Shown here piece by piece: positions 8,430 to 58,908 of a DNA stretch of 64,000 bases. Location: assembly GCA_041675145.1 (NCBI GenBank), contig JBAYUK010000002.1, positions 152,530 through 216,529 on the forward strand. Reading direction: 5' to 3'. Both the position numbers and the translations under genes were made by a program. Under the pieces are notes generated by a model, which saw only the letters and a program-made list of their open reading frames with translations, made no database searches and was not told the origin of the DNA. This DNA is from Patescibacteria group bacterium. Its GTDB lineage: Bacteria; Patescibacteriota; JACPGU01. The stretch's first letter is position 1. Each line of letters starts with the position of its first letter.

Positions 8430-8435
8430 CTATAT

Positions 8436-8506
8436 TGCGGGATCGTCTAGTGGTAGGACATCGCCCTCTGGAGGCGAGTACCTTGGTTCGAATCCAAGTC
8501 CCGCAG
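8436..8506 (+). tRNA. tRNA-Gln (anticodon CUG)
   Basis: Manual fold: acceptor TGCGGGA/TCCCGCA, U8, D-arm GTCT..GGAC with GG in the loop, anticodon stem TCGCC/GGCGA, loop CTCTGGA, T-arm CTTGG-TTCGAAT-CCAAG, discriminator G. Confidence 0.75.
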
Positions 8507-8612
8507 TTCTCTAGGGCACCCGACCGAGAGGGGTCAGGAGCCCTACTAGGCTACAGAAGCATTCTGAACTCTAGATAAGAAAAGTCACACATTTTAGGTG
8601 TGACTTTTCTGT
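8507..8612 (+). repeat. copy E of the island repeat family: 3' module only (tRNA-Gln trailer) plus intrinsic terminator
   Basis: ctagggcacccgaccgagaggggtcaggagccctactaggctacaga is near-identical to copies at 10317, 12378 and 28397; ends with hairpin gtcacacattttaggtgtgac + T-tract. Confidence 0.8.
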
Positions 8613-15763: not shown

Positions 15764-16840
15764 ATGGCAATCATTATTTCAAAAAACGGCAAGGATGCGA
15801 AAAAAGTAGATAAGTCTACTTTTGATAGAGAAGACTATCTCCAGCAGTATATTTATGACAATCCGGAAAGCATACCGCTTTATGAGATCAGAGAAGATAT
15901 ACGGATGGTGATTCTAGCTCGCGAGTTTAATACAAATAGTGGTCCTATTGATGCTATTGGATTTGATAAAGACGGAGAAATATACATTGTTGAAACAAAA
16001 CTCTACAAGAATCCAGACAAGAGGACAGTTGTCGCTCAAGCACTAGATTATGGTGCTGCCCTCTGGAGACACGCCAACGATTTTAATGTATTTATCGATA
16101 CACTGAATGCATATACGAGCAAGCATTTCCAGCAAAGCGTACAAGAAAAGTTGCAGAATTTCTATGAGATCTCAGAAGATGAATCGTTAAAGATAGTCGA
16201 AAAAGTTCGAACAAATCTCAACGACGGCATATTTCATTTTGTAGTACTCATGGATCAGCTGAGCGATAGACTCAAAGACCTGGTTGTATATGTGAACCAA
16301 AACAGTCAATTTGATATCTATGCAGTCGAACTCGAATATTATCGTCATGAAGAACATGAAATTATTATTCCAAAGATCTTTGGTGCAGAGGTGAAAAAAG
16401 ACATCAAGGTATCTACCTCAAATAGCGCTCGCAAAAGATGGAGTGAAGACGAACTTCTGAATGCCGCAAAAAGCACATTATCTTCTGAGGGATATGCCGC
16501 CTTTGAAAAGTTGTATGTGTTTTCAAAGGAGCATGCGGATAATGTTAGTTTTGGCACTGGTACATCTTCGGGATCATTTAGTCCTATTTTTAGCAGTGTT
16601 TGCCCACGCTCTCTTTTTACACTTCGCACTAACGGCACACTGAGTCTTAACTTCCAATGGATTAATGGCTACGATGGAGCAGAGGAATTCCGCAGTCTGT
16701 ATTTTGATAAGATGAGGCAAATAGGGTTGGACTTGTTGCCTGCTGATATTGAGAAGTACCCAAATTTTTCATTAGACCAATGGCTGCAATACTCTGACAA
16801 TATCCTCGCCGTGTTGAGTGATATTACGAGGTTAAAATAG
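15764..16840 (+). CDS. PD-(D/E)xK nuclease, RecB-family-like
   Basis: PIDAIGFDKDGEIYIVETK (D..D/E-x-K) followed by QALDY (QxxxY motif). Confidence 0.5.
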   Translation: MAIIISKNGKDAKKVDKSTFDREDYLQQYIYDNPESIPLYEIREDIRMVILAREFNTNSGPIDAIGFDKDGEIYIVETKLYKNPDKRTVVAQALDYGAALWRHANDFNVFIDTLNAYTSKHFQQSVQEKLQNFYEISEDESLKIVEKVRTNLNDGIFHFVVLMDQLSDRLKDLVVYVNQNSQFDIYAVELEYYRHEEHEIIIPKIFGAEVKKDIKVSTSNSARKRWSEDELLNAAKSTLSSEGYAAFEKLYVFSKEHADNVSFGTGTSSGSFSPIFSSVCPRSLFTLRTNGTLSLNFQWINGYDGAEEFRSLYFDKMRQIGLDLLPADIEKYPNFSLDQWLQYSDNILAVLSDITRLK

Positions 16841-18440: not shown

Positions 18441-19242
18441 AGTATCAAACTTTTATATAAACACAGAAGGAAATCTGCTAAGAAATTTACCCCAAGGCTT
18501 GGGGCCAGATGATGTGAATTACCAATCTTTTGTTGAAAGATATGGAAAAAGGGATTTTGATCAAAAATTGCAACGATATCTAAGCATTGAGAATCCAGTA
18601 CTTTCTGTAGTACAGGATCACATCCCTTTATTAGAAGAGATTAATAACTCATATGTAGCTGGAAATTTTTATTCATGTTTAACGGCCGCATGTTGTCTTG
18701 GAGAGAGAATATTTAATGATGTATTCTTTGCCATAAACGGCGATCATAAATCTTCTGATTGGTATAGAAAATACTGGAATAAGGGGGTAATACAGAACTG
18801 GCCAGATGGAATTAGTATGTTACATGAATGGAAGGTTATAGATGAAGAAACAAGAAAGAAGTATCTACTGCTCTATAAATTGCGAACCTATTCGGTTCAC
18901 TTTCAGAAAAGTGAACAGGACTTCGAGAAGATGTCGTTTGAGGCTATCGAGATAATTAATTGTATCGTCAGAAGAATATTTGGTATGAATGAGTATAGAA
19001 AGGATATACTTATTCATTTCGAAGTTCCAGGAGAGATATTCATAAGAAAAGGAGCTGAGTTGCTGCCTATAGTAAAAGCGTTTTATATACCCGCATCCCA
19101 CAAGTTGGGATATATGTATAAGGTTGAGTCTACTGCAAATCCGGGCCAATATCAGATCACAGATGACAACGAATACGAAAGCAAAGAAATTACGGACGAA
19201 GAATTTGTAGTTTTAAGGAATAACTTCGTTAGTAATCCTTAG
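18427..19242 (+). CDS. hypothetical protein (second gene of the cassette)
   Basis: ORF; 3' end convergent with and overlapping the recombinase stop. Confidence 0.5.
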   Translation: MKRYRVSNFYINTEGNLLRNLPQGLGPDDVNYQSFVERYGKRDFDQKLQRYLSIENPVLSVVQDHIPLLEEINNSYVAGNFYSCLTAACCLGERIFNDVFFAINGDHKSSDWYRKYWNKGVIQNWPDGISMLHEWKVIDEETRKKYLLLYKLRTYSVHFQKSEQDFEKMSFEAIEIINCIVRRIFGMNEYRKDILIHFEVPGEIFIRKGAELLPIVKAFYIPASHKLGYMYKVESTANPGQYQITDDNEYESKEITDEEFVVLRNNFVSNP

Positions 19243-20567
19243 GATATTCTGAGTATTTCATCCTCTAGTATTATTTTGTTCTTAAAGTTCTTCAATAGCT
19301 CTCGTTTTTCAGCTAGCATACCTTCTTTCAGAATGTACTTCGCATAGTTCTTGATATCTATTTCTGACACATCTACTTTCTTTTGTTTTTCATTATTTCC
19401 CAACACATGTGCTTGAAAGTTTCCGTATCGTTTGAGCTCATGTTTTACGCGTTCGTAAATACCCAGCTCGTTCATATCAATCTGGTCAATAATCTTTATT
19501 AACTCGCTGATAAGGTTAGTCTCATTGATGCTATTGCTGCAGCTCTTGTCTCTGCTTTTCGTGCAGGCATAGTAAATATGCTTATTGAACGACCCATTGA
19601 TCAGTTTCTTATACTTCTCATTAGCGGATATACCTGAGCCACATTTACCGCAGGTAAGTAATCGCGTGAAGGCGAATTCTTTTCCTGTTACTGCTGAGTT
19701 ATATCTTTCCTTGAGACACTTTTGTGCCTCGTCAAAGAGTTCTTTAGATATTAGTGGAGTATGTGCTCCCTGATACCAATTGCCACTTTTCTTCGGGTAT
19801 TCAAAGCTACCGTAGTAGAAGTGATTATTGAGGATGGTGTAGATGTTGCTGAGTGACAAATGTTTTCCGCTACTGGCTCTGAAGTCTTTTTCAAACTTTA
19901 ACCAGGCGTACATCTGTCTCCCGCTTATTCCCTGATACACGACTCGCTCAAATATCTCTCGAATAACTGGTGCTCGTTCCGGATCGAGGACAGGATCGCA
20001 CTTTTTCATTCGGTTAGGGTTGTTGAGGTACCCAGTAGGAGCTCGTGAAGGCCACATACCCATCTCACAGCGGGTTCTTAAACCTCGCTTCACATTCACT
20101 CCCTTGTTATCATTCTCGAGCTTGGCCTGAGAACCGAGGATCATGAGGAGAAACTTCTCATTCGGATTGTTAGAGAACTTTTGTCCGTAGGTTCTAATCT
20201 CAATGATCTTCTTCTGATCCATCATGTCGACGATGGAGCCGAGGTCTCCTGCGTTACGGCTCAAGCGGTCAGGCGCCCAGGTGAGAATAGAATTGTATGT
20301 ACCATTCCGAATACCGGCTATCATTTCGTTAAAGACCGGGCGTTGCCCGGTCTCTTTCGCTGAGTGACTTTCTCGCAAGATGTCGATAATCTCAATACCT
20401 TCTCGTTGGGCCAGGACCATCATCTCCTTGATTTGTGAATCAATGGACAGCGCCTGGCGCTCGTCTGACTCGGTTGACTTCCTCGCATAGAGGCAGTACT
20501 TGGTTTCTTCTGCTATTACGGTACTTGCTTGTGTTTGCATCATATCTAATGAATGACGCGAACCCAC
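19239..20567 (-). CDS. large serine recombinase (integrase)
   Basis: Resolvase catalytic domain YARKSTESDERQ...PDRLSRN, recombinase domain, C-terminal zinc-ribbon CGKCGSG...YYAC. Confidence 0.9.
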   Translation of the reverse strand: MGSRHSLDMMQTQASTVIAEETKYCLYARKSTESDERQALSIDSQIKEMMVLAQREGIEIIDILRESHSAKETGQRPVFNEMIAGIRNGTYNSILTWAPDRLSRNAGDLGSIVDMMDQKKIIEIRTYGQKFSNNPNEKFLLMILGSQAKLENDNKGVNVKRGLRTRCEMGMWPSRAPTGYLNNPNRMKKCDPVLDPERAPVIREIFERVVYQGISGRQMYAWLKFEKDFRASSGKHLSLSNIYTILNNHFYYGSFEYPKKSGNWYQGAHTPLISKELFDEAQKCLKERYNSAVTGKEFAFTRLLTCGKCGSGISANEKYKKLINGSFNKHIYYACTKSRDKSCSNSINETNLISELIKIIDQIDMNELGIYERVKHELKRYGNFQAHVLGNNEKQKKVDVSEIDIKNYAKYILKEGMLAEKRELLKNFKNKIILEDEILRIS

Positions 20568-20908
20568 CCAGTAGTCTAGGCTTATTATTCGTTGCTAATA
20601 AAAGCTCTTCGCAAGGCTCCAGATGTAAGCTAAGATACGTGGACTTTTGCCGTATTCGTGGTAAAATGACTTAACAATTGAGTAGTGCCTAACCCCGAAG
20701 TTTTCGCTTCGGATATGGCGCAAAACCCCCAACCAAGATACTGAACCCCGTGTTCAGCAACTCTTGGTTGGGTCATATCGGGAAACTGATATGGAGTCGC
20801 AAGACTCGGCTGGCGCGGGGCTTAGTGTATCTAAGCGTTGTTGCCAGCTACTTATTATAGAGAGCTGGATTTTTTTATTATTAACGCACAATACTAATAA
20901 CTACATAT

Positions 20909-21370
20909 ATGAGCAATACAACAAACGATAAAGAGTTTAAGGGGTATAACGGCACGCTAATACTCACCAATACAGGAATTATCATAAAGCGTGGCACGAA
21001 GGGATTCCTGCTCGGTGGCTTCCAGATGAGAGGAGACAAAACGATACCGTATAGCAGTATTGTGGCAGTACAGTTTAAGAAGGCTGGGTTATCTGCCGGT
21101 TATATCCAGTTTACTCTCAAGGGAGGATCAGAGGCAAAAGGCGGTTTGCTCCAGTCAACCAGAGATGAGAACAGTATTAATTTCCACTCCAATAGAAACA
21201 AAGAGTTTATTGAAGCAAAGGAGCTTATCGAACAGCGCATTGGTTCAGAAGGATCATCTGCTAGACCAAGCGAACTCGATGAGCTTACAAAACTCGCTAC
21301 TCTGAAAGACAAAGGCATTATTAATCAGAAAGAGTTTGACGCTAAGAAAAAACAGCTCCTTGGCTTATAA
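20909..21370 (+). CDS. PH-like (DUF4429-type) domain protein with C-terminal SHOCT domain
   Basis: C-terminal LKDKGIINQKEFDAKKKQLL matches the SHOCT pattern. Confidence 0.55.
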   Translation: MSNTTNDKEFKGYNGTLILTNTGIIIKRGTKGFLLGGFQMRGDKTIPYSSIVAVQFKKAGLSAGYIQFTLKGGSEAKGGLLQSTRDENSINFHSNRNKEFIEAKELIEQRIGSEGSSARPSELDELTKLATLKDKGIINQKEFDAKKKQLLGL

Positions 21371-21392
21371 TAATCATTAGTAACTCACCACA

Positions 21393-22055
21393 ATGGCATT
21401 TATCAATGGCTTCTTTTCGTTCCTATTCTTTATTTCGTTTATTTTATTGATTGTGGGGCTAATTGCTCCTAAGAAAGTAAGTAGGCTTTTGAAGAAAGAT
21501 TGGGACCGCAAGATGATCGCAAAAACTATCGGTCTGGTCTCGTTGGCATCCTTCGTTATTGCAGTGGCTACTACGCCCGCTGTTCCGGTATCTCCAAAAG
21601 CTACTAAAACGTCTACAGTTACTGAAACCACTGAGCAGGTTCAGGCAATAAATGTAGAGGAGCCACAAGAAATTGTGTCAGAGGAAGTTAAAGAAGCGGC
21701 CAAGGATTCAGCAGTAAGTGAAACTAAGCCAGCAACATCATCGCCGACTCCTCAAAAGACCACCAACTCGAGTCCTGCTCAAACGACCACTTCTCCTACG
21801 CCAGCGACATCGAGCCCTACACCAACTCCACAACCAGCACCAACAACCCCCGCGCCTACTCAACCAGCACCACAACCAGCACCAGTTCCATCTGGTCACA
21901 CGTTTTATACCAGTTCGCACTATAGCGCAAAATTATATTACTGTGATACAGATGAAGGGTGGAGAGGCCTTTCACCAAGTTATCTCAAATCTTTTCCTAG
22001 CGCCGAAGCATTATTGAAAGTATACCCAAGAACACTTCACGAGCCGTGTAAATAA
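21393..22055 (+). CDS. secreted/anchored Pro-Thr-rich protein with conserved Cys-containing C-terminal domain (paralog of the next gene)
   Basis: N-terminal TM, PT-rich linker, C-terminal HTFYTSSHYSAKLYYCDTDEGWRGLSPSYLKSFPSAEALLKVYPRTLHEPCK. Confidence 0.6.
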   Translation: MAFINGFFSFLFFISFILLIVGLIAPKKVSRLLKKDWDRKMIAKTIGLVSLASFVIAVATTPAVPVSPKATKTSTVTETTEQVQAINVEEPQEIVSEEVKEAAKDSAVSETKPATSSPTPQKTTNSSPAQTTTSPTPATSSPTPTPQPAPTTPAPTQPAPQPAPVPSGHTFYTSSHYSAKLYYCDTDEGWRGLSPSYLKSFPSAEALLKVYPRTLHEPCK

Positions 22056-22058
22056 AGT

Positions 22059-23189
22059 ATGGAAAGTAGCGCTTTAACCCTTTTATTCTTCTTACTGTTT
22101 ATAGCTTCAGTTGTATTACTGATTGCTGGATTAATATGGCCGCCGATTCTCAAGCGACTTATTAAGTCTGTTCCCACTAGAAAAGCAATAGCCTTATTCT
22201 TCTCGGGGCTAATAGTGACTTCTTTCATTGGAGTAGCGGTCTTCGTTCCGCATAGTAATAGTAGAATAACTGCTGATACTGTTTCAGAGGAAAAAACAAA
22301 CATAGAGCAAGAAGCTCAAGGCGTACCTGTTAGCACCCAAGACGGTGTCGGTGCTGGCACTATTGAAGAAGTTACTGCCGAGAAAACGGTGCGGTCACTT
22401 CCTGATCAAGCTTCTAGTAGCACAAAAACAGCGACACCGACGCCCGCGCCGAGCCAACCAACTTCAGCACCCGCCAAGCCCGCGCCGAGCCAAGTTCCAG
22501 TAGTTGCACCACCTGCACCCACACCAGCCACGACCACGTACTTCTCAGTCGTTTCCGTAACTGACGGAGATACTTTTAAAGTATCTATAGATGGGAAGAC
22601 TGATACTATACGTATTATCGGTGTAGATACTCCAGAAACTGTTGATCCAAGAAAACCCGTGCAATGTTTTGGGGTAGAAGCTTCAAGCAGAGCCAAGGCT
22701 TTACTTACTGGAAAGAAAGTAAGATTGGAGTCGGATAGTGTCTCGGGTGATCGAGACAAGTATAACCGCTTGCTTCGTTATGTGTGGCTCGAGGATGGTA
22801 CTTTTTTTAACGAGACCATGATATCCGAAGGATACGCCTTCGAATACACTTATCAAAGTCAGGCATATGTGTACCAGTCTGAATTCAAGAAAGCTGAACA
22901 GAACGCAAAGAATTCAAAGCTAGGACTTTGGGCGGATAATGCCTGTAATCAGACAACGCAATCTGCCGTAGTGCCACCTGTAGTTTCGCCTCCCGCAACA
23001 GCTCAGCCCGTACCTACTACAACATCTTCGCATGTATTTTATACGAGCTCATATCATACTGCTCAATATTACTATTGCGATACTGACAACGGATGGAAGG
23101 GTCTTTCGCCGAGTTATCTTAAATCATTCCCAAGTGCTGAGGCGTTACTGAAGGTATACTCGAGAACACTTCACGAACCCTGTAAGTAG
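22059..23189 (+). CDS. secreted thermonuclease (staphylococcal nuclease fold) with the same C-terminal domain
   Basis: SNase core DGDTFKV...IRIIGVDTPE...RLLRYVW...GYA; C-terminal HVFYTSSYHTAQYYYCDTDNGWKGLSPSYLKSFPSAEALLKVYSRTLHEPCK. Confidence 0.8.
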   Translation: MESSALTLLFFLLFIASVVLLIAGLIWPPILKRLIKSVPTRKAIALFFSGLIVTSFIGVAVFVPHSNSRITADTVSEEKTNIEQEAQGVPVSTQDGVGAGTIEEVTAEKTVRSLPDQASSSTKTATPTPAPSQPTSAPAKPAPSQVPVVAPPAPTPATTTYFSVVSVTDGDTFKVSIDGKTDTIRIIGVDTPETVDPRKPVQCFGVEASSRAKALLTGKKVRLESDSVSGDRDKYNRLLRYVWLEDGTFFNETMISEGYAFEYTYQSQAYVYQSEFKKAEQNAKNSKLGLWADNACNQTTQSAVVPPVVSPPATAQPVPTTTSSHVFYTSSYHTAQYYYCDTDNGWKGLSPSYLKSFPSAEALLKVYSRTLHEPCK

Positions 23190-23636
23190 CTATTCTGATA
23201 TGCCCTTTTCCTCTTCAGCCATCTCCTTATGAAGCTTTAGTGCCCATTCTGCGATCGTCTCCGGTGGCGTTTCATTGATGATTATGGAGTGTACTGGAAC
23301 GAATGACTCAACATCTTTTGTAGGTACTTTGGGTGTATACTCCGGGTCTCTGCTCTTAAGCTGAAATACGATAGCCTGCATATTGCCTTCTTTTATCTTT
23401 TGCGTTAAGGCAGACTTAGCAAGATCGTTTAATGCAGCTCTTCCGAGTTTACGCGCCTTGGTTACTTCATCTGCAAGATCCATATCTTCTTCGATCCAGC
23501 GATAGAATGTTGCACGGGAGACGCCTGCCTTTTTGCATACTATGGATATATTGTCGAGTTCACTTAACAAGGCAAGAATCTCTTTCTTGTTTTTAGCAAT
23601 TCTTTTTTGGTCAGTTTTAGCTTTCTTGTCTTCCAT
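23190..23636 (-). CDS. HTH protein resembling phage terminase small subunit
   Basis: CKKAGVSRATFYRWIEED helix-turn-helix near the N-terminus; located next to two DNA methyltransferases as in phage packaging modules. Confidence 0.45.
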   Translation of the reverse strand: MEDKKAKTDQKRIAKNKKEILALLSELDNISIVCKKAGVSRATFYRWIEEDMDLADEVTKARKLGRAALNDLAKSALTQKIKEGNMQAIVFQLKSRDPEYTPKVPTKDVESFVPVHSIIINETPPETIAEWALKLHKEMAEEEKGISE

Positions 23637-24381
23637 GAGCTTTTTTACCCGTTAACTTTTCCCACCGTTGAACGATCGTAGCGCAGTACTCCAAATCCTG
23701 CTCGACCATAACACACTTCCGCTTCGTATGCTCGCACGCAACTATTGTGGTTCCTGATCCACCGAATGGGTCGTACACCACATCTCCCACCTCAGTGCAG
23801 TTTAGAATGAGCTTACGAATGAGGCCGACTGGCTTCATGGTGGGGTGGAGCTTGCTCTGTTGTGGCTTGGGCGCAAACAACACCGACTTATCTTTACTAT
23901 GCTTGAAGTCATGCGTACCATACCAGCCATAGAGGATTAGTTCGTGTTGCGGGAGATAGTCAAGTCGACCAATGACAGGTTTGTCTTTGACCCAAATAAG
24001 CAACTGCGCTACTTTGATCTTCATATCTACGCAGGCTTGGCGCAGGGCAAAGACCATCTTGTCTGAATTGAAGATGTAGATACTATTCTTCTTCGTGAGA
24101 TACGGCAGCGCGGGACCAAGCCACCCTTGCGTAAAGGTCGCGTACTGCGCATCTGACATATGCCCGTCATTTTGGATATCTTTATCTTTGGATACTTTTT
24201 GTAAATCTCGCTTGCTGGCGACATAGTCGATACCGTACGGCGGATCCGTGATAATAGCGTTGATCTTGCCATCTTTCAGGATAGCCTTCAGATCTAAGGT
24301 ACTGGCATCCCCACAGACTAAGGTGTGGTCACCGAGCTGGATAATATCCCCGGACTTAATTGAGTTTGATGGCTGTGTCAT
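23617..24381 (-). CDS. DNA (N6-adenine/N4-cytosine) methyltransferase, beta class
   Basis: Motif IV IITDPPYGIDY before motif I VYDPFGGSGTT; start placed at MTQPS (24381) with GGGAGAA upstream rather than the longer ORF from 24438. Confidence 0.85.
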   Translation of the reverse strand: MTQPSNSIKSGDIIQLGDHTLVCGDASTLDLKAILKDGKINAIITDPPYGIDYVASKRDLQKVSKDKDIQNDGHMSDAQYATFTQGWLGPALPYLTKKNSIYIFNSDKMVFALRQACVDMKIKVAQLLIWVKDKPVIGRLDYLPQHELILYGWYGTHDFKHSKDKSVLFAPKPQQSKLHPTMKPVGLIRKLILNCTEVGDVVYDPFGGSGTTIVACEHTKRKCVMVEQDLEYCATIVQRWEKLTGKKAHGRQES

Positions 24382-25630
24382 TGGTAAGGTTCTCCCAGCG
24401 GTTAATAATAAGTTGGCAAAAAACAGGACTTTGCTCAATCAGATACGCGACACGCTTTAGTTGTTCGCAGGCGAGCAAAGTTGAGCCACTCCCACCGAAT
24501 AGATCGAGTACCGTATCGCCGATCTTGGTACAGCGCATCAGCGGTCGCTCGTGTAAAGTGAGTGGCTTCTGGGTGGGGTGATTGTAGTCGTCACTCGCAT
24601 CTCGCTTAACCAACCAAATGTCGATCAGGTCGGCGACATCATCAAGAGTGGCATTGCCAATGCCGACTTCAGTATTTAAGATCTCCGCAAACTTGGTATG
24701 TTTATCCGACAAGTACGGTTTTCCCACCGTGCCATAGACACACGGTTCATACAACTTCGAGAAGGCTATCTGCGGAGTCGGATTAATACCGTTCTTAATC
24801 CACAAACACGTCCGTTGGTATTTGATTCCCAGCTCCTCGTATACCGATTGCACCATCCCGACGTAGCGCTCATCACACCACCAGAATAGATGCGTATCTT
24901 TTTGCGCAACACCCAGGGCGTTACCTAAAGTCTGCTTCGTAAAGAGTCGGAACGCATCGTCGGACAAGGAATCGTTAACTGCGCCACCATAGTTAGCTTT
25001 GCCGCCAATCCCTTTGTTATAGTCGAGGCTAATATTGTATGGGCTGTCGCAATACACCATATGTACTCGTGTTTCGCCAACTAACTTTTGTACAGCTTCC
25101 ATGTCGGTGCTATCTCCGCACAGTAACCGGTGATTGCCCAGCTGAAACAGGTCACCGGACTGGATGTCTGTAGTTAGCGCTTTCTCGATCTCTTCCTCCT
25201 CATTGAAGCTGTCGTCTTCCAATTCCAGAACATCGTCCCAGATACTGGAAAGATCGGTATCGTCAAAGCCGATATCGAGTAAGAATTCGGTATCGAATTC
25301 CTTGAGGAGATCAAAATTCCACGAACCCGTATTGCGGTTGGAGCGCAGTAAATATTCGTCGAATTCTTTTTGATCAAGTAATCGACTCGGTACTCGCACA
25401 TCGATTAGTTCTTCGCCACGACCCAGTTCACGCAGGATAAAGAGTCGTTGGTGACCAGCAATCACTGTGTTATCTAAGTTGATCGCTGGAATTTCAACGA
25501 GGTCAAACTTCGTAATACTTTTTGTCAGATCCTTTTTCTGCTGCGCGCTCAAGGTACGCGGGTTCTTGGAATAGGGCACCAAATCTGAGACTTTACGTTT
25601 TTCTGTGTGCCACTGAATAGATTTTTTCAT
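24356..25630 (-). CDS. ParB-N-like domain fused to DNA methyltransferase
   Basis: N-terminal ParB-like nuclease domain (...IAGHQRL...), CDSPYNISLDY (DPPY-type) and LDLFGGSGSTL; start at MKKSIQW (25630) preceded by AGGAGA SD; the longer ORF start at 25675 lies inside an upstream terminator hairpin. Confidence 0.85.
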   Translation of the reverse strand: MKKSIQWHTEKRKVSDLVPYSKNPRTLSAQQKKDLTKSITKFDLVEIPAINLDNTVIAGHQRLFILRELGRGEELIDVRVPSRLLDQKEFDEYLLRSNRNTGSWNFDLLKEFDTEFLLDIGFDDTDLSSIWDDVLELEDDSFNEEEEIEKALTTDIQSGDLFQLGNHRLLCGDSTDMEAVQKLVGETRVHMVYCDSPYNISLDYNKGIGGKANYGGAVNDSLSDDAFRLFTKQTLGNALGVAQKDTHLFWWCDERYVGMVQSVYEELGIKYQRTCLWIKNGINPTPQIAFSKLYEPCVYGTVGKPYLSDKHTKFAEILNTEVGIGNATLDDVADLIDIWLVKRDASDDYNHPTQKPLTLHERPLMRCTKIGDTVLDLFGGSGSTLLACEQLKRVAYLIEQSPVFCQLIINRWENLTNDTAIKLN

Positions 25631-25654
25631 AATATATTCTCCTAAATTTACCAA

Positions 25655-25730
25655 TAAAAAATGCCCACTCTGCAAAATAACAAACCAGGAAGATTTACTC
25701 CCTAAATTTATTTTTCTGCAAAGTGGGCAC
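25655..25730 (-). terminator. large-loop intrinsic terminator for the 117-aa gene
   Basis: Inverted arms atgcccactctgcaaaata / ttttctgcaaagtgggcac followed on the minus strand by TTTTTTATT. Confidence 0.5.
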
Positions 25731-25805
25731 GACCGAGGCGAAGCCTCTCTGGTGTCTTACGACACCTTCTATCACCCGAAGGTGAAATACGTGATACTCA
25801 CTGTG

Positions 25806-26159
25806 TTATCTACTGCTCGATTGTAAAAATGCTGTCAACTCGTTAGGGCGATGTGCCTTCAGAAATTCTATCGCATCTTTTCCAAGAAATACCGGCGCGC
25901 CACCCTCCGGCATACGAATACGAAGTTTTTTACCTTGTTTCTTTGCCAAAGCATGGGCACGTTCAATCTCAGGATTATGGAAAATAACTCGAACCGTATC
26001 TTTACTACCCTCGATCTGCTTGATGTCCGTACTATACGCACGCTGTTCTGTCTTGGTATTGATCGATCGCTCAATAACGCGACCAACAGATTTTGGTTTG
26101 CGCGGCAGCTGAACATTCAGCTCGAGGTCATAAATGTATACATCGATAAACTCTTCCAT
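25806..26159 (-). CDS. hypothetical protein, divergent from the repressor gene
   Basis: ORF only. Confidence 0.45.
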   Translation of the reverse strand: MEEFIDVYIYDLELNVQLPRKPKSVGRVIERSINTKTEQRAYSTDIKQIEGSKDTVRVIFHNPEIERAHALAKKQGKKLRIRMPEGGAPVFLGKDAIEFLKAHRPNELTAFLQSSSR

Positions 26160-26267
26160 ATCCGTATACTAGCACGAAGGGAAAGTGGGTGTCAAGCGTG
26201 AAACATATGTTACGGCTCTTTACGAAAAAGTTATTGAAAGTTCAAAAAAGTATGTTATTATTCAAGT

Positions 26268-26918
26268 ATGAATCCTATCCAAAATGAATTGATGACCCTA
26301 GCCAAAGACCACGATCTCGGTAAAATGAGTTATCGTCAGATAGCAAAACTGATCGGAAAAGAAGGCAGGCCTCAGCTAGTGAAGCATCATCTTGAACAAC
26401 TTGATAGGCAGGGATTAATGCAGGTCAATCTGAAAGAAAAGGTAATTCGCCTGGTCAAGAAAGGGTTCAATAAAACTAAAACAGAAAATTCGTTTTACTC
26501 GTTACCAATTGTTGGTTCGGCGAATTGTGGTCCAGCTACCATATTCGCTGACGAGAGCGTCCAGGGATATTTGAGAGTTTCAGCAAATGTGTTACCTCGA
26601 AAAAAACAGGACCTGTATGTGCTCGTAGCAGATGGCGGATCAATGGATCGGGCTTCTCTTAAAAAAGGAGGTCCTACTATTGAGGATGGCGATTTCGTGG
26701 TTGTAGATAGCTCAAAAGTCAGTCCAAAAGATGGTGAAGTTGTGGTGGCGGTTATTGATCGCATGGCGACTATTAAGCGCTACAAAAAAGATCCAAAGAA
26801 TCACCGCATTATCCTTCAGCCCGAATCAACAGAGAACTATTTCCCAATCATTGTGCAGCAAGGTGATAACTTTCAAGTCAGCGGAACAGTCATCGACATC
26901 ATCAAGAAAGCAAAGTAA
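26268..26918 (+). CDS. LexA/CI-like repressor (winged HTH + S24 peptidase domain)
   Basis: N-terminal HTH YRQIAKLIGK...; C-terminal VADGGSMD (Ser nucleophile) and ...ATIKRY (Lys). Confidence 0.75.
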   Translation: MNPIQNELMTLAKDHDLGKMSYRQIAKLIGKEGRPQLVKHHLEQLDRQGLMQVNLKEKVIRLVKKGFNKTKTENSFYSLPIVGSANCGPATIFADESVQGYLRVSANVLPRKKQDLYVLVADGGSMDRASLKKGGPTIEDGDFVVVDSSKVSPKDGEVVVAVIDRMATIKRYKKDPKNHRIILQPESTENYFPIIVQQGDNFQVSGTVIDIIKKAK

Positions 26919-27262: not shown

Positions 27263-28210
27263 ATGGCAAACAAGAAGTTTTTAGAAGAATATCCACTATA
27301 CAAGAAGTATGAAACCGCATGGAATCAGGAAGAGCACGACTATTCATGGATGACCCTCGGTAAGCTTCCCGAACCAGCGATCCATATGTATTGCACTGTT
27401 TGTGATTCTGATCAAACATTCAATATGCGTAACGAGTATTATGACGATAGCTATATGGGGCTTGAGAGGAATAATACAGAATTTCAAAAGTATGCCGAGG
27501 AGGTGAAGTTAGTATATTGTGAGAAAATTCCTGCAGCAGGAAAGGTGCTCCGGAGTGACTATTTGTGTTCGGCTTGCGGTAAAGGGAGGATGATATTCCT
27601 TATTTATTTCTTTAGGGAAAAGATTGGTTCAAGATCTGTTCTATGCATGATGAAGGTTGGCCAAACTCCTCCTTGGAGCATAGTAGTAAATAAAGAGATG
27701 GAGAAGCTTTTGGGTAGTAACGCAGAGCACTATAAGAAAGGGTTGATTTGTGAATCACAGTCTTACGGTATTGGTGCATACGCCTATTTCAGAAGAATCA
27801 CCGAGACTATTATTGATGAACTATTGGACTCTATTTCGGATTTGTTAGAAGGTAAAGAAAAGGAGCTATATGCTGATGCGCTTGCAAAAACGAAAGCCAC
27901 TCGAGTGACTCAAGATAAGATAGATTTAGTTAAACACCTGTTGCCAGTTTCTTTACGACCTGACGGTCTTAATCCGCTTGATATTCTTCATTCTGCGCTG
28001 AGTCAAGGGCTACACGTAGAAGACGATGAGGTATGTCTAGAACAAGCAGAGGCCATAAAGAAGGTATTGGTCTTTCTAGTCAGCCAGATTATTAAGAAGA
28101 AAGATGAAGCCAAGGAATTTACTAAAGGCATGAGAGAGATACTAAACAAGAAGTCGAAACCTACCGTTGTTGAGGATGGGAAAGAAAAAAAGGCAGATGA
28201 ATCAGAATAG
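27263..28210 (+). CDS. hypothetical protein with N-terminal Cys4 zinc-ribbon-like motif
   Basis: CTVCDSD...CSACGKG; lysine-rich C-terminus. Confidence 0.5.
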   Translation: MANKKFLEEYPLYKKYETAWNQEEHDYSWMTLGKLPEPAIHMYCTVCDSDQTFNMRNEYYDDSYMGLERNNTEFQKYAEEVKLVYCEKIPAAGKVLRSDYLCSACGKGRMIFLIYFFREKIGSRSVLCMMKVGQTPPWSIVVNKEMEKLLGSNAEHYKKGLICESQSYGIGAYAYFRRITETIIDELLDSISDLLEGKEKELYADALAKTKATRVTQDKIDLVKHLLPVSLRPDGLNPLDILHSALSQGLHVEDDEVCLEQAEAIKKVLVFLVSQIIKKKDEAKEFTKGMREILNKKSKPTVVEDGKEKKADESE

Positions 28211-41731: not shown

Positions 41732-41803
41732 GGTCTCATCGTCTAGTGGTTAGGACAACAGGTTCTCATCCTGTAAACAGGGGTTCGATTCCCCTTGAGA
41801 CTA
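41732..41803 (+). tRNA. tRNA-Glu (anticodon CUC)
   Basis: Acceptor GGTCTCA/TGAGACT, anticodon stem ACAGG/CCTGT with loop TTCTCAT, T-arm AGGGG-TTCGATT-CCCCT. Confidence 0.85.
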
Positions 41804-57665: not shown

Positions 57666-57675
57666 AGATTTGGAA

Positions 57676-58031
57676 CTTTTAGCGTATCTATAAGCCGGGT
57701 TCTGTACCTTGATATAATCAAGGCGACAATCATCTCTCTAGCCTTAATATTGCTACTAAGGTCATGCGATAGGACTGTATATACATGCCAGGAACAGCTC
57801 AGTATATATAAGCCTTTCTATCTTGCACCAAGTGGGGTTTACCCTCGACTATGTCACCATAGCCGTAGATTCGCCGAAGCGAAGCGTTTCACATTAATCG
57901 TCTCTGTGGCACTATTCCCTAGATTTAGCTCTTGCGAGCGTATGTCTGGTGGCCGTTAGCCATCACTATGTTCCTGAGGTGCCCGGACTTTCCTCCCACA
58001 AGAAGCGGGCGATTGTCCAATACGCTAAAAG
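57676..58031 (-). ncRNA. rnpB: RNase P RNA (bacterial type A)
   Basis: Minus strand carries GGAGGAAAGTCCGGGCACC (P4 5' strand), GGGTAAACCCCAC, GTGCCACAGAGACG and ACAGAACCCGGCTTAT (P4 3' strand). The 12-bp P1 helix is CTTTTAGCGTAT/ATACGCTAAAAG. A TATAAT lies just upstream. Confidence 0.85.
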
Positions 58032-58723: not shown

Positions 58724-58748
58724 AAAAGGCGCTTTTTGTATAAAAAAA

Positions 58749-58819
58749 CTCAGGGACCTGGGCTCGAACCAGGATTGACGGCTTCAAAGGCCGCTGTCCT
58801 ACCATTAGACGATCCCTGA
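58749..58819 (-). tRNA. tRNA-Gln (anticodon UUG)
   Basis: Reverse complement folds as acceptor TCAGGGA/TCCCTGA, anticodon stem GCGGC/GCCGT with loop CTTTGAA, T-arm CCTGG-TTCGAGC-CCAGG; followed by a T-run. Confidence 0.85.
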
Positions 58820-58908
58820 ATGCCCAAAAATCGTATCATATTTAGTGAAAAATTAAAATAGTCTCGACTGGAAGTGTAATGTATGGATAATAAAAGAAAA
58901 AAACAATT

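Follow-up and report, generated by a model that had tools for sequence, protein, structure and literature searches.

Introduction

Why do two adjacent genes of a Patescibacteria genome encode proteins which end in nearly the same short cysteine-containing segment, when only one of them carries a nuclease? The question is raised by a stretch of 64,000 nucleotides of contig JBAYUK010000002.1 (assembly GCA_041675145.1, positions 152,530 to 216,529 of the forward strand), here called the window (64 kb), in which gene A (21393–22055) and gene B (22059–23189) follow one another on the plus strand. An earlier note, made from the letters of the window, had described their products as paralogous secreted proteins of a small-genome, possibly episymbiotic organism, and the source, a metagenome-assembled genome (MAG) of the Patescibacteria, is in keeping with the organism it had envisaged. 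Patescibacteria are unable to make nucleotides of their own, and for most of their surface proteins no function has been assigned. The segment common to A and B, called the module below, is apparently an uncatalogued, strongly conserved extracellular domain specific to bacteria of the candidate phyla radiation (CPR). The nuclease of B is ordinary in kind, and the novelty sits in the module.

Two adjacent paralogous genes

Gene A encodes 220 amino acids, in agreement with the gene called in the ENA assembly of the contig, and is the nuclease-free paralog with a hairpin anchor, a stalk rich in proline and threonine, and the C-terminal module. Gene B encodes 376 amino acids and joins an anchored nuclease of the staphylococcal nuclease (SNase) type to the module. 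Three bases separate the two reading frames, which are probably co-transcribed. The paralogy and the near identity of the C-terminal ends, both asserted before, were borne out by BLASTP: the last 61 amino acids, which include the 53 residues of the module, are 77% identical (E 5e-32), and about 146 residues at the N-terminus are 34% identical (E 4e-11).

A Kyte-Doolittle window scan located two hydrophobic segments in each protein, at residues 3–25 and 42–62 of A (21399–21578) and at residues 3–28 and 43–63 of B (22065–22247), with a loop rich in lysine and arginine in between. The positive-inside rule predicts that in both proteins the two helices form a hairpin in the membrane and that the long C-terminal part lies outside the cell. 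Of the N-terminal membrane anchor proposed in the earlier note the anchoring and the outward orientation are thus kept as predictions, and its single helix has to be replaced by two. In A the hairpin is followed by a low-complexity stalk (residues 63–167, 21579–21893) in which proline, threonine, serine, and alanine account for fractions of 0.20, 0.20, 0.12, and 0.12. In B there follow a first stalk rich in proline, threonine, and alanine (residues 64–160, 22248–22538), the SNase domain (residues 161–296, 22539–22946), and a second, short linker rich in proline, threonine, and valine (residues 297–323, 22947–23027). Proline, threonine, serine, alanine, and glutamine together make up 55–70% of the linkers, which agrees with the composition noticed earlier. 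The module closes both proteins, at residues 168–220 of A (21894–22052; GHTFYTSS...YYCDTDEGW...LHEPCK) and residues 324–376 of B (23028–23186; SHVFYTSS...YYCDTDNGW...LHEPCK). A hidden Markov model (HMM) of the module recognised the two copies with E-values of 7.9e-30 and 1.7e-29, and these are the only two in the window.

Identical residues are encoded by 44 of the 55 module codons of A and B. At 17 of these 44 positions the codon itself is identical, compared to 16.2 ± 3.0 expected in a simulation with independent codon draws, and the proportions of nonsynonymous (pN) and synonymous (pS) differences are 0.12 and 0.93. Since the synonymous sites have reached saturation and the proteins nevertheless agree at 44 of 55 residues, the two modules are old and both have been under strong purifying selection. 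An excess of synonymous divergence, as would point to selection against recombination between the modules, was ruled out by the same simulation.

The sequence of A, with either plausible start, was not found in a collection of 15 billion proteins in which its neighbour B is present. Low-complexity proteins of the A type may be under-represented in large protein collections.

The nuclease domain of gene B

Residues 183–293 of B match the Pfam family SNase (PF00565) with a score of 94.3 bits, the cutoff being 21 (E 7.6e-27), and no SNase domain was found in A by the Pfam scan. B is identical to NCBI entry MFA7309059.1, a 'thermonuclease family protein' of a Patescibacteria group bacterium. The residues scored for function were the calcium ligands D21, D40, and T41 of S. 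aureus nuclease, its catalytic R35, E43, and R87, and in addition Y85, Y113, and Y115. A phmmer alignment with the SNase chains of PDB places D21, R35, D40, T41, and E43 at D171, R185, D190, T191, and E193 of B, and Y85, R87, Y113, and Y115 at Y235, R237, Y263, and Y265. The domain had been called complete, with inactivating substitutions named as the finding that would argue against nuclease function; every catalytic and calcium-binding residue is present in B and no such substitution was found. Judged by its sequence the active site is intact, and nothing in the sequence speaks against activity. With scores below the NCBIfam equivalog cutoffs of NucI (NF047694, 119.7 versus 250 bits) and EcnA (NF047969, 71.9 versus 180 bits), B is to be placed in the SNase family as such, and not with NucI or EcnA.

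Another feature of the domain is a pair of cysteines, C202 (in VQCFG; 22662–22664) and C296 (in LWADNAC; 22944–22946). Of the 120 best homologs of B, 116 have kept it, and exactly two cysteines were counted in the region in 114 of the 120. S. aureus nuclease is without this pair. It probably forms a disulfide bond, an adaptation of the fold to the cell surface. Exactly two cysteines are also found in 298 of 304 modules, and the recurrence of this number in both domains fits extracytoplasmic disulfides.

The C-terminal module as a domain family

The module is present in every one of the 120 best homologs of B. When 1.84 billion representatives were searched exhaustively with a profile, at least 384 clusters, defined at 50% identity, were obtained with E<=1e-3, and 268 with E<=1e-10. 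The module stands at the C-terminus, with three residues or less after it, in 297 of 304 proteins; in the module protein P0207 it is internal and an HHH_3 domain comes after it. Nearly all named sources are members of the CPR, that is, Patescibacteria group, Komeili-, Buchanan-, Nomura-, Yanofsky-, and Magasanikiibacteria, Microgenomates, Paceibacterota, and Parcubacteria. Outside the named CPR the module was met in one 'Bipolaricaulis' MAG and in three MAGs of 'uncultured Gammaproteobacteria', the latter with the same mobile element as described below. This taxonomic survey is a shallow one, a profile scan of genome contigs with a narrower alignment which gave 10 loci.

No genuine match, only noise, was obtained in Pfam-A and NCBIfam at E<=10 for the modules of A and B and 56 aligned relatives (58 in total). 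A profile of the 58 modules retrieved only noise from the PDB sequences, for example the YYC motifs of antibodies, and a tblastn search of the module against 50,697 GenBank phages returned nothing below E = 3. The novelty claimed for the domain, for which a Pfam search had been proposed as a check, has thus held up.

For the module of the window type AlphaFold2 predicts a beta-beta-alpha-beta-alpha fold with a mean predicted local distance difference test score (pLDDT) of 92.8, the strands spanning module positions 4–7, 14–17, and 31–34 and the helices 21–25 and 37–43. The model of the relative P0014, based on an alignment dominated by a second sequence type of the family, has the same fold (pLDDT 89.4). 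These models bear on the suggestion of the earlier note that the module might be a sorting or anchoring signal. Its place at the extreme C-terminus and its recurrence in many secreted proteins would suit a signal of the LPXTG, PEP-CTERM, or GlyGly-CTERM kind. However, A and B have no hydrophobic segment past residue ~63 in the Kyte-Doolittle scan, and the C-terminus lacks both the hydrophobic helix and the basic tail that belong to such a signal. None of the NCBIfam and Pfam models of such signals matched the module, which moreover occurs internally before HHH_3 in P0207 and is also found on proteins anchored by SLH domains. The sorting signal was therefore rejected and retains practically no probability; with its confident globular fold of 53 amino acids the module is a domain.

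Partner domains of the module

SNase was detected by local phmmer in 53 of 142 newly retrieved module representatives, and most of the others resemble A in having an N-terminal hydrophobic segment, a linker, and the module. A Pfam scan of 85 non-standard module proteins then gave SNase in seven, the ComEA-type domain HHH_3 in six, metallo-beta-lactamase in two (P0135, P0171), and a PLD-like domain (PLDc_2, in P0232), HNH_5, and a lamin-tail domain (LTD, in P0219) in one each. Partners without a link to DNA were SLH in two proteins (P0178, P0241) and SH3_3 in one. Fusions of HHH_3 with the module amount to at least seven proteins, among them P0129, P0207, and P0265. Proteases, glycosidases, and lipases were absent from the partners seen in the 85 proteins. 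This bias towards DNA handling is the main argument for a job of the module which concerns DNA and not generic anchoring.

Part of the same data could be read as a sign of a different ligand. The module would then fix the far end of the stalk to the cell envelope or to a glycan, be it peptidoglycan, the S-layer, or the surface of a host. It stands nearly always at the extreme C-terminus behind long proline- and threonine-rich linkers of a wall-spanning type, its conserved surface is rich in tyrosine, tryptophan, serine, and threonine with little net charge, many family members consist of anchor, stalk, and module alone, and SLH and SH3_3 occur together with it in three proteins. An envelope anchor would, however, be expected on many classes of enzymes, whereas the identified partners are mostly DNA-handling; a second anchor would be needless on proteins which already have SLH or a membrane hairpin, and the only hints from the fold indicate a DNA-binding domain. 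An envelope anchor is hence considered unlikely.

Some copies of the module are found in the chromosome proper. The module-only protein P0264 has its gene in a ruvB-yebC-ruvC cluster, after ruvB and next to that of a pilB-like ATPase, a setting in favour of a function which concerns DNA. One HHH_3-module protein is encoded in an ordinary htrA/clpB neighbourhood. Since module-only and HHH_3-module genes have such chromosomal settings, the module is not confined to mobile DNA. The company of a pilB-like ATPase and of ruv genes would also suit a docking or oligomerisation domain which recruits DNA-handling proteins to a surface machine such as the competence pilus or ComEC, or which joins A and B to a hetero-oligomer. 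Such a role would account for a module common to different DNA-handling enzymes and ComEA-like proteins, for the adjacency and probable co-transcription of A and B, and for a very strong sequence conservation, as would be expected of an interface. On the other hand the adjacency of A and B is not conserved, and no conserved partner gene accompanies the module across loci, which makes this explanation improbable.

Possible resemblance to the zinc domain of Ada

A fold like that of the N-terminal zinc domain of Ada (N-Ada) was proposed before any fold search, from the conserved pattern of the module (an aromatic strand, Y-Y-C, L..L..F.S..A-L-L, and a terminal HxxC). When the model of P0014 was compared by Foldseek to 350,542 PDB chains, the top match was 1u8b_A, N-Ada in complex with DNA, with a TMq of 0.64 and a root-mean-square deviation of 2.2 Å over 51 of 55 columns, at a non-significant E-value of 4.4 and a probability of 0.30. 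In BFVD the window-type model matched a 64 amino acid phage protein and a 'Double zinc ribbon protein' (TMq 0.72, 1.7–1.8 Å) as well as a 'Metal binding domain of Ada' (TMq 0.52, E 4.2), all of them non-significantly. At the sequence level the Pfam family Ada_Zn_binding (PF02805) gave no match at E<=10 for the 58 modules, and no Ada chain appeared in the PDB profile search. The Ada sequence used in the comparisons was confirmed to be exact. A relationship of the module to N-Ada is suggestive in the light of these models and is not established.

In an informal, non-significant alignment the zinc ligands C38, C42, C69, and C72 of Ada correspond to C, D, H, and C in A and B, which do not have the four-cysteine zinc site of N-Ada. 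Among 298 distinct sequences the equivalent positions read CDHC, the state of A and B, in 157, PCSC in 82, HCHC in 8, and PCCC in one, P0014. The four positions vary together, and C or H at position 17 is tightly coupled to H at position 49. This rare relative of four cysteines, P0014, has the spacing C-x5-C ... C-x2-C, with three cysteines at equivalent positions and one at position 14; the CGAYC subtype of the module also has four. These patterns are most simply read as the remodelling of an ancestral metal site within the family. A disulfide between C17 and C52 or between C20 and C52 probably forms in all module types, and modules of the CDHC and HCHC types may have a residual Cys/Asp/His/Cys metal site in its place. 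As to its kind, the module probably represents an extracellular, zinc-poor version of a fold already known, in a role that is known too, that of an accessory domain on secreted nucleases.

The residues in question might also be there for a metal in the first place. In that case the module would chiefly be a calcium- or zinc-binding or stability element, similar to Excalibur, which buffers or senses the cation of the SNase domain without contacting DNA. The acidic CDTD(E/N)GW motif and the cluster of His, Asp, Glu, and Cys co-vary, SNase enzymes are calcium-dependent, and small cysteine-containing calcium-binding domains do occur on secreted nucleases, Excalibur (PF05901) being the example. Against this, the PCSC type, which makes up about a third of the family, keeps the same fold and partners without having the acidic and histidine cluster, no Excalibur HMM matched, and in A-type proteins the module is present without an enzyme. 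A metal element in this sense is likewise improbable.

LOOT RNA upstream of the nuclease

Upstream of the two genes the window contains a LOOT RNA (Rfam RF03000; 20686–20807, plus strand), which cmscan detected in full length (model positions 1–121) with 88.7 bits, the gathering threshold being 46.4. It is the single copy in the window and lies on the same strand 101 nucleotides ahead of the first gene of the operon to which A and B belong, in a gap of 340 nucleotides between an integrase gene and this operon. The finding is not peculiar to the window. In a sample of 16 loci with an SNase-module gene, labelled here by L numbers, LOOT lies upstream on the same strand as the nuclease gene or its operon in 13. 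It precedes the start codon of the nuclease by 43–75 nucleotides in L001 (2903–3025), L003 (109–238), L006 (2973–3102), L007 (3001–3121), L018 (4837–4957), L020 (4806–4938), L021 (4833–4954), L022 (4813–4941), and L023 (4827–4955), and is separated from the nuclease by one or two open reading frames (ORFs) in the window, L002 (2337–2459), L004/L011 (1928–2049 in L004), and L019 (4426–4546). LOOT was not found, even at E<=1, in the nuclease loci L008, L012, and L024, nor in the loci of module-only and HHH-module genes. As the 13 loci include the non-mobile L018, LOOT is linked to the nuclease gene and not to the element described in the next section. A second LOOT in L020 (1849–1963, plus strand) was observed ~310 nucleotides upstream of a gene for a secreted PG_binding_1 protein of 591 amino acids without nuclease or module, and LOOT is therefore not exclusive to nuclease genes.

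Directly 3' of the region covered by the Rfam model a conserved segment resembling CUGGCGGGGAGCUUUUGUGUUU is found in the window (20808–20850) and in L003, L004, L006, L007, L019, L020, and L021. This segment, which is outside the Rfam model, often forms a hairpin with a covarying stem (TGGCGG/CCGCCA, TGGTGG/CCACCA, CTGGC/GCCAG). A possible function is that of an expression platform; alternatively, base pairing might take place between its U-rich loop and the conserved AAAA of LOOT. The recurrent position of LOOT, in mobile and non-mobile settings, suggests a cis-acting 5' leader of secreted nuclease genes in Patescibacteria and not an independent sRNA. A scan for promoters and terminators between 20400 and 23800 gave nothing above the expectation from shuffled sequences, and a literature search brought up nothing usable on the function of LOOT or on thermonucleases of Patescibacteria.

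A phage-like element carrying the operon

The operon of a SHOCT gene, A, and B is cargo of a phage-like integrative element of ~7.7 kb, which extends from 19239 to 26918. The SHOCT gene (20909–21370, plus strand, 153 amino acids), first of the operon, combines a bacterial-PH-like DUF4429 (E 7.9e-7) with a SHOCT domain (E 6.8e-8) according to Pfam and matches phrog_2700 (E 2.9e-19); it is not kept beside the nuclease in other loci. At one end of the element lies the integrase gene, which encodes a large serine recombinase (19239–20567, minus strand) with the Pfam domains Resolvase, Recombinase, and Zn_ribbon_recom, and whose homologs with 51–60% identity adjoin the SNase-module gene in L002, L007, L008, L011, L021, and L022. 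Convergent with B, a gene on the minus strand (23190–23636) encodes a protein resembling helix-turn-helix (HTH) proteins and small terminases (TerS), with matches to Sf6_terminase and HTH_29 in Pfam and to five terminase-small-subunit PHROGs, and with syntenic homologs in L002, L006, L011, and L019–L022. Two genes for N6/N4 DNA methyltransferases follow (23617–25675, minus strand; Pfam N6_N4_Mtase), which also have syntenic homologs, the second being of the kind that is fused to ParB_N in these homologs. Behind them come an ORF of 117 amino acids and the gene of an S24 (LexA/CI-type) peptidase protein (26268–26918, plus strand; Peptidase_S24, E 6.4e-20), probably the repressor of the element, with syntenic homologs in L019, L021, and L022. 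The GC content between 20 and 26 kb is 0.45–0.46, compared to 0.36–0.40 in the flanks.

Genes of the same element flank the SNase-module gene in L002, L004/L011, L006, L007, L008, L019, L020, L021, and L022. In other CPR loci a large terminase (TerL; Terminase_6C) often stands between the nuclease and the small terminase. L011, a viral contig of IMG/VR, is identical to the Yanofskybacteria locus L004 and has the order integrase, TerL, TerS, methylase, methylase, followed by ORF-X and the nuclease. A TerL homolog as in L002, L006, and L011 was not found in the window, and the tested ORFs flanking the operon gave no structural PHROG matches. For lack of TerL and of detectable structural genes the copy in the window is a remnant or a satellite-like element, and the large terminase, portal, capsid, and tail genes of a complete tailed prophage are not assembled there. 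The recurrent CPR element was observed to consist of the serine recombinase, LOOT with the nuclease, an optional TerL, the TerS-like HTH protein, one or two N6/N4 methylases (one of them fused to ParB_N), and S24. Capsid and tail genes were not seen in its vicinity, and the element may represent a phage satellite or else a prophage in decay. Three of the loci, L006, L007, and L008, are titled 'uncultured Gammaproteobacteria bacterium'. They carry nuclease, integrase, and terminase of the CPR type, L006 and L007 also LOOT, and their organism labels may be default or erroneous.

Hallmarks of mobile elements such as integrases, terminases, transposases, and phage genes were counted from the gene tables within 5 kb of the nuclease in 14 of the 16 SNase-module loci, a small and biased sample; in L018 the gene occupies a plain chromosomal site. 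In L012, a 34.8-kb IMG/VR contig, the nuclease is encoded on the opposite strand within a tail module (tape measure, minor tail protein, Neck1).

This context raises the question of whom the operon serves. It might be a weapon of the mobile element, in which a surface DNase and a decoy or receptor destroy transforming DNA and thereby protect the element from curing, and not a means of host nutrition. The frequency of element genes around the nuclease points in this direction, as does the tailed phage just mentioned, where the nuclease gene is a moron on the opposite strand, and LOOT would give the nuclease gene a leader of its own, as morons have. CPR bacteria are naturally competent and thus transformable (PMC10633639), and nucleases of mobile elements which degrade incoming DNA or block transformation have been reviewed (PMC12378983), namely IdeA and SxnA of the Vibrio integrative conjugative elements ICE VchInd5 and SXT, and Dns of the Campylobacter prophage CJIE1, for which this protective role has been shown. 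The chromosomal context of L018, which still has LOOT, and the chromosomal location of module-only and HHH-module genes do not fit so well; in addition the sample of loci is biased, the SNase fold differs from that of IdeA and Dns, and a role in nutrition would be compatible with one against transformation. A purely element-serving weapon is therefore a possibility to be taken seriously, but one held with clearly less than even confidence.

Proposed mechanism

The reading preferred here takes the gene structure, the paralogy under selection, the SNase site, the distribution of the family, its partners, the synteny, and the LOOT linkage as its observed footing. It adds to them a topology, DNA binding by the module, roles for A and B, cis-regulation by LOOT, and a biological pay-off. 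Both proteins would be held in the membrane by their N-terminal two-helix hairpin and would present the C-terminal part outwards on a proline- and threonine-rich stalk. The module would be an alpha/beta head, stabilised by a disulfide or a metal, which captures nucleic acids, and a divergent extracellular relative of the N-Ada zinc domain, which grips the DNA backbone. A would be a nuclease-free DNA receptor, functionally similar to ComEA. In B the same head would hold the nuclease on its substrate, and the SNase domain of the calcium type would hydrolyse extracellular DNA or RNA. The operon, cargo of a phage-like element, would be transcribed behind LOOT as a probably cis-acting leader.

The pay-off could be of two kinds. 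Degradation of DNA at the surface would be a source of nucleotides and phosphate for a cell, and for its phage, that cannot make them, and transforming DNA which might cure or out-compete the element would be destroyed. The two are not mutually exclusive and possible together. Nucleotide scavenging and defence against incoming DNA had both been suggested in the earlier note; as far as can be told from the genes they are plausible, and defence gains weight from the mobile-element context.

Several observations weigh against this reading. A stands beside B in this genome only, in none of the 15 other loci examined. The link between module and DNA rests on the partners and on a non-significant fold similarity, no significant similarity having been found; most family members have no identified partner, so that the association comes from about 70 fused proteins. 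With a net charge of about +1 the module is not markedly basic, and its abundance of exposed-type tyrosine and tryptophan and of serine and threonine would suit glycan binding equally well. As to N-Ada, the Foldseek E-values are non-significant (4.4 in PDB, >1 in BFVD), the window-type model had no Foldseek match in PDB, hhalign of the module profile with Ada residues 24–77 gave a probability of 0.2%, and a global alignment of module and N-Ada was no better than shuffles (P = 0.35). The coupling of cysteine or histidine at module position 17 to histidine at position 49 has an odds ratio of 175 which is uncorrected for phylogeny. Rfam files LOOT as a small RNA (sRNA), its action in cis being what we infer. 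Finally comEC is dispensable for growth in Saccharibacteria (PMC10633639), which weakens nucleotide scavenging by way of competence. Taken as a whole, from stalked nuclease, capture head, and receptor to LOOT leader and phage-like cargo, the preferred reading is accordingly put forward as tentative, with a chance slightly short of even.

A bolder version would make the operon a mobile and self-contained 'DNA-harvesting cassette' which serves both CPR bacteria and their phages, with LOOT as a riboswitch-like cis-regulatory RNA that responds to a ligand or signal and turns on the surface nuclease, the module as an extracellular, zinc-less domain for holding the substrate, descended from the backbone-binding domain of Ada, and A-type proteins as a new class of surface DNA receptors. 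This is rather doubtful.

Further genes at the nuclease loci

A window protein of 358 amino acids (15764–16840, plus strand) has no Pfam, PHROG, or PDB match and contains a PD-(D/E)xK-like motif (IDAIGFD...IYIVETK) which recalls NucS/DUF91 nucleases. In the Yanofskybacteria and IMG/VR loci (L004 1935–3155, L011 5862–7082) the gene of a homolog with 57% identity immediately precedes the SNase-module gene and overlaps it. CBASS-like defence genes directly follow the S24 gene in L019 (9119–10643; CD_NTase_C and Cap15) and in L022 (8912–10987; SMODS and SLATT_4). The equivalent position of the window (27263–28210) encodes a protein of 315 amino acids with a strong match (E 4e-40) to phrog_25239 only, a family of unknown function. 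Reverse transcriptases (RVT_1) adjoin the nuclease in L004 (4169–5239, minus strand), which is the same as L011 8093–9145, and lie ~4.4 kb upstream of it in L021 (1–556), there beside a bAvd gene, a hallmark of diversity-generating retroelements. Housekeeping RNAs of the window are a class A RNase P RNA (57675–58028, minus strand, 183.8 bits) and tRNA-Gln(CTG), tRNA-Glu(CTC), and tRNA-Gln(TTG) (8435–8507, 41732–41803, and 58748–58820).

Significance

The absence of nucleotide synthesis together with natural competence makes the capture and processing of external DNA central to the biology of Patescibacteria. A module found with at least six kinds of partner domain that handle DNA gains a testable function in this setting, the capture of DNA, and also a testable structural ancestry in an N-Ada-like fold with a remodelled zinc site. 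Since the module-bearing nuclease is recurrent cargo of an integrative phage-like element and occurs in a tailed phage, it is tied to the conflict between mobile elements and transformation. Least expected among the by-products of the analysis were the recurrent linkage of LOOT to the nuclease and the conserved CPR element. An orphan RNA has been placed in a defined lineage upstream of a defined gene, which makes its function experimentally approachable. Should the DNA-harvesting cassette prove true, a function would be at hand for an orphan RNA motif and for an uncatalogued CPR-wide domain, and the means by which extracellular DNA is manipulated by phages of ultrasmall bacteria auxotrophic for nucleotides would be identified.

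Comparison with known systems

The nuclease of B shares the fold, by HMM, the catalytic and calcium-binding residues, and the predicted extracytoplasmic anchoring with the SNase family, which includes Nuc of S. aureus, NucI, and the anchored or lipoprotein-type YncB/YokF of B. subtilis. It differs from this family in the hairpin anchor, the two long proline- and threonine-rich stalks, the cysteine pair in the SNase domain, and the additional C-terminal module. As for LOOT, which is listed in Rfam as an sRNA of unknown function, it is met here in Patescibacteria MAGs at a recurrent site upstream of a secreted nuclease gene.

Two known domains have features in common with the module. Excalibur is an extracellular calcium-binding domain of secreted Bacillus proteins including nucleases; like the module it is small, contains cysteines, stands C-terminally on secreted nucleases, and has an acidic DxD-type motif. 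The motif reads DxDxDGxxCE in Excalibur and YYCDTD(E/N)GW in the module, there is no HMM match, and predicted fold and length differ. The N-Ada zinc domain (PF02805; PDB 1ADN, 1U8B) has, after its first helix, the same order of elements as predicted for the module (beta-beta-short helix-beta-helix with a terminal CxxC or HxxC), and both have DNA-related partners. The spacing of the cysteines is C-x3-C...x26...C-x2-C in Ada and C-x5-C...x29...C-x2-C in P0014. N-Ada is cytoplasmic and binds zinc by four cysteines, whereas the module is predicted to be extracellular, has mostly two cysteines, lacks the first helix of Ada, and is not expected to be a methyl acceptor.

At the level of whole systems A may be set beside ComEA, the anchored competence DNA receptor with HHH_3, since both have a membrane anchor, a linker, and a small C-terminal extracellular domain. 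In contrast to ComEA no HHH motif was found by Pfam in A, or in B, the gene lies in a mobile element and not in a com operon, and DNA binding by A is an expectation drawn from the features of its module. B in turn resembles IdeA, SxnA, and Dns as a predicted extracytoplasmic non-specific DNase encoded in a naturally competent lineage, and like them it is carried by an integrative, phage-like mobile element, its operon being flanked by the serine integrase, the TerS-like protein, the methylases, and S24. It is set apart from these nucleases by an SNase fold in place of that of endonuclease I, by its stalked surface anchoring and the extra domain, and by the occurrence of its gene also outside mobile elements.

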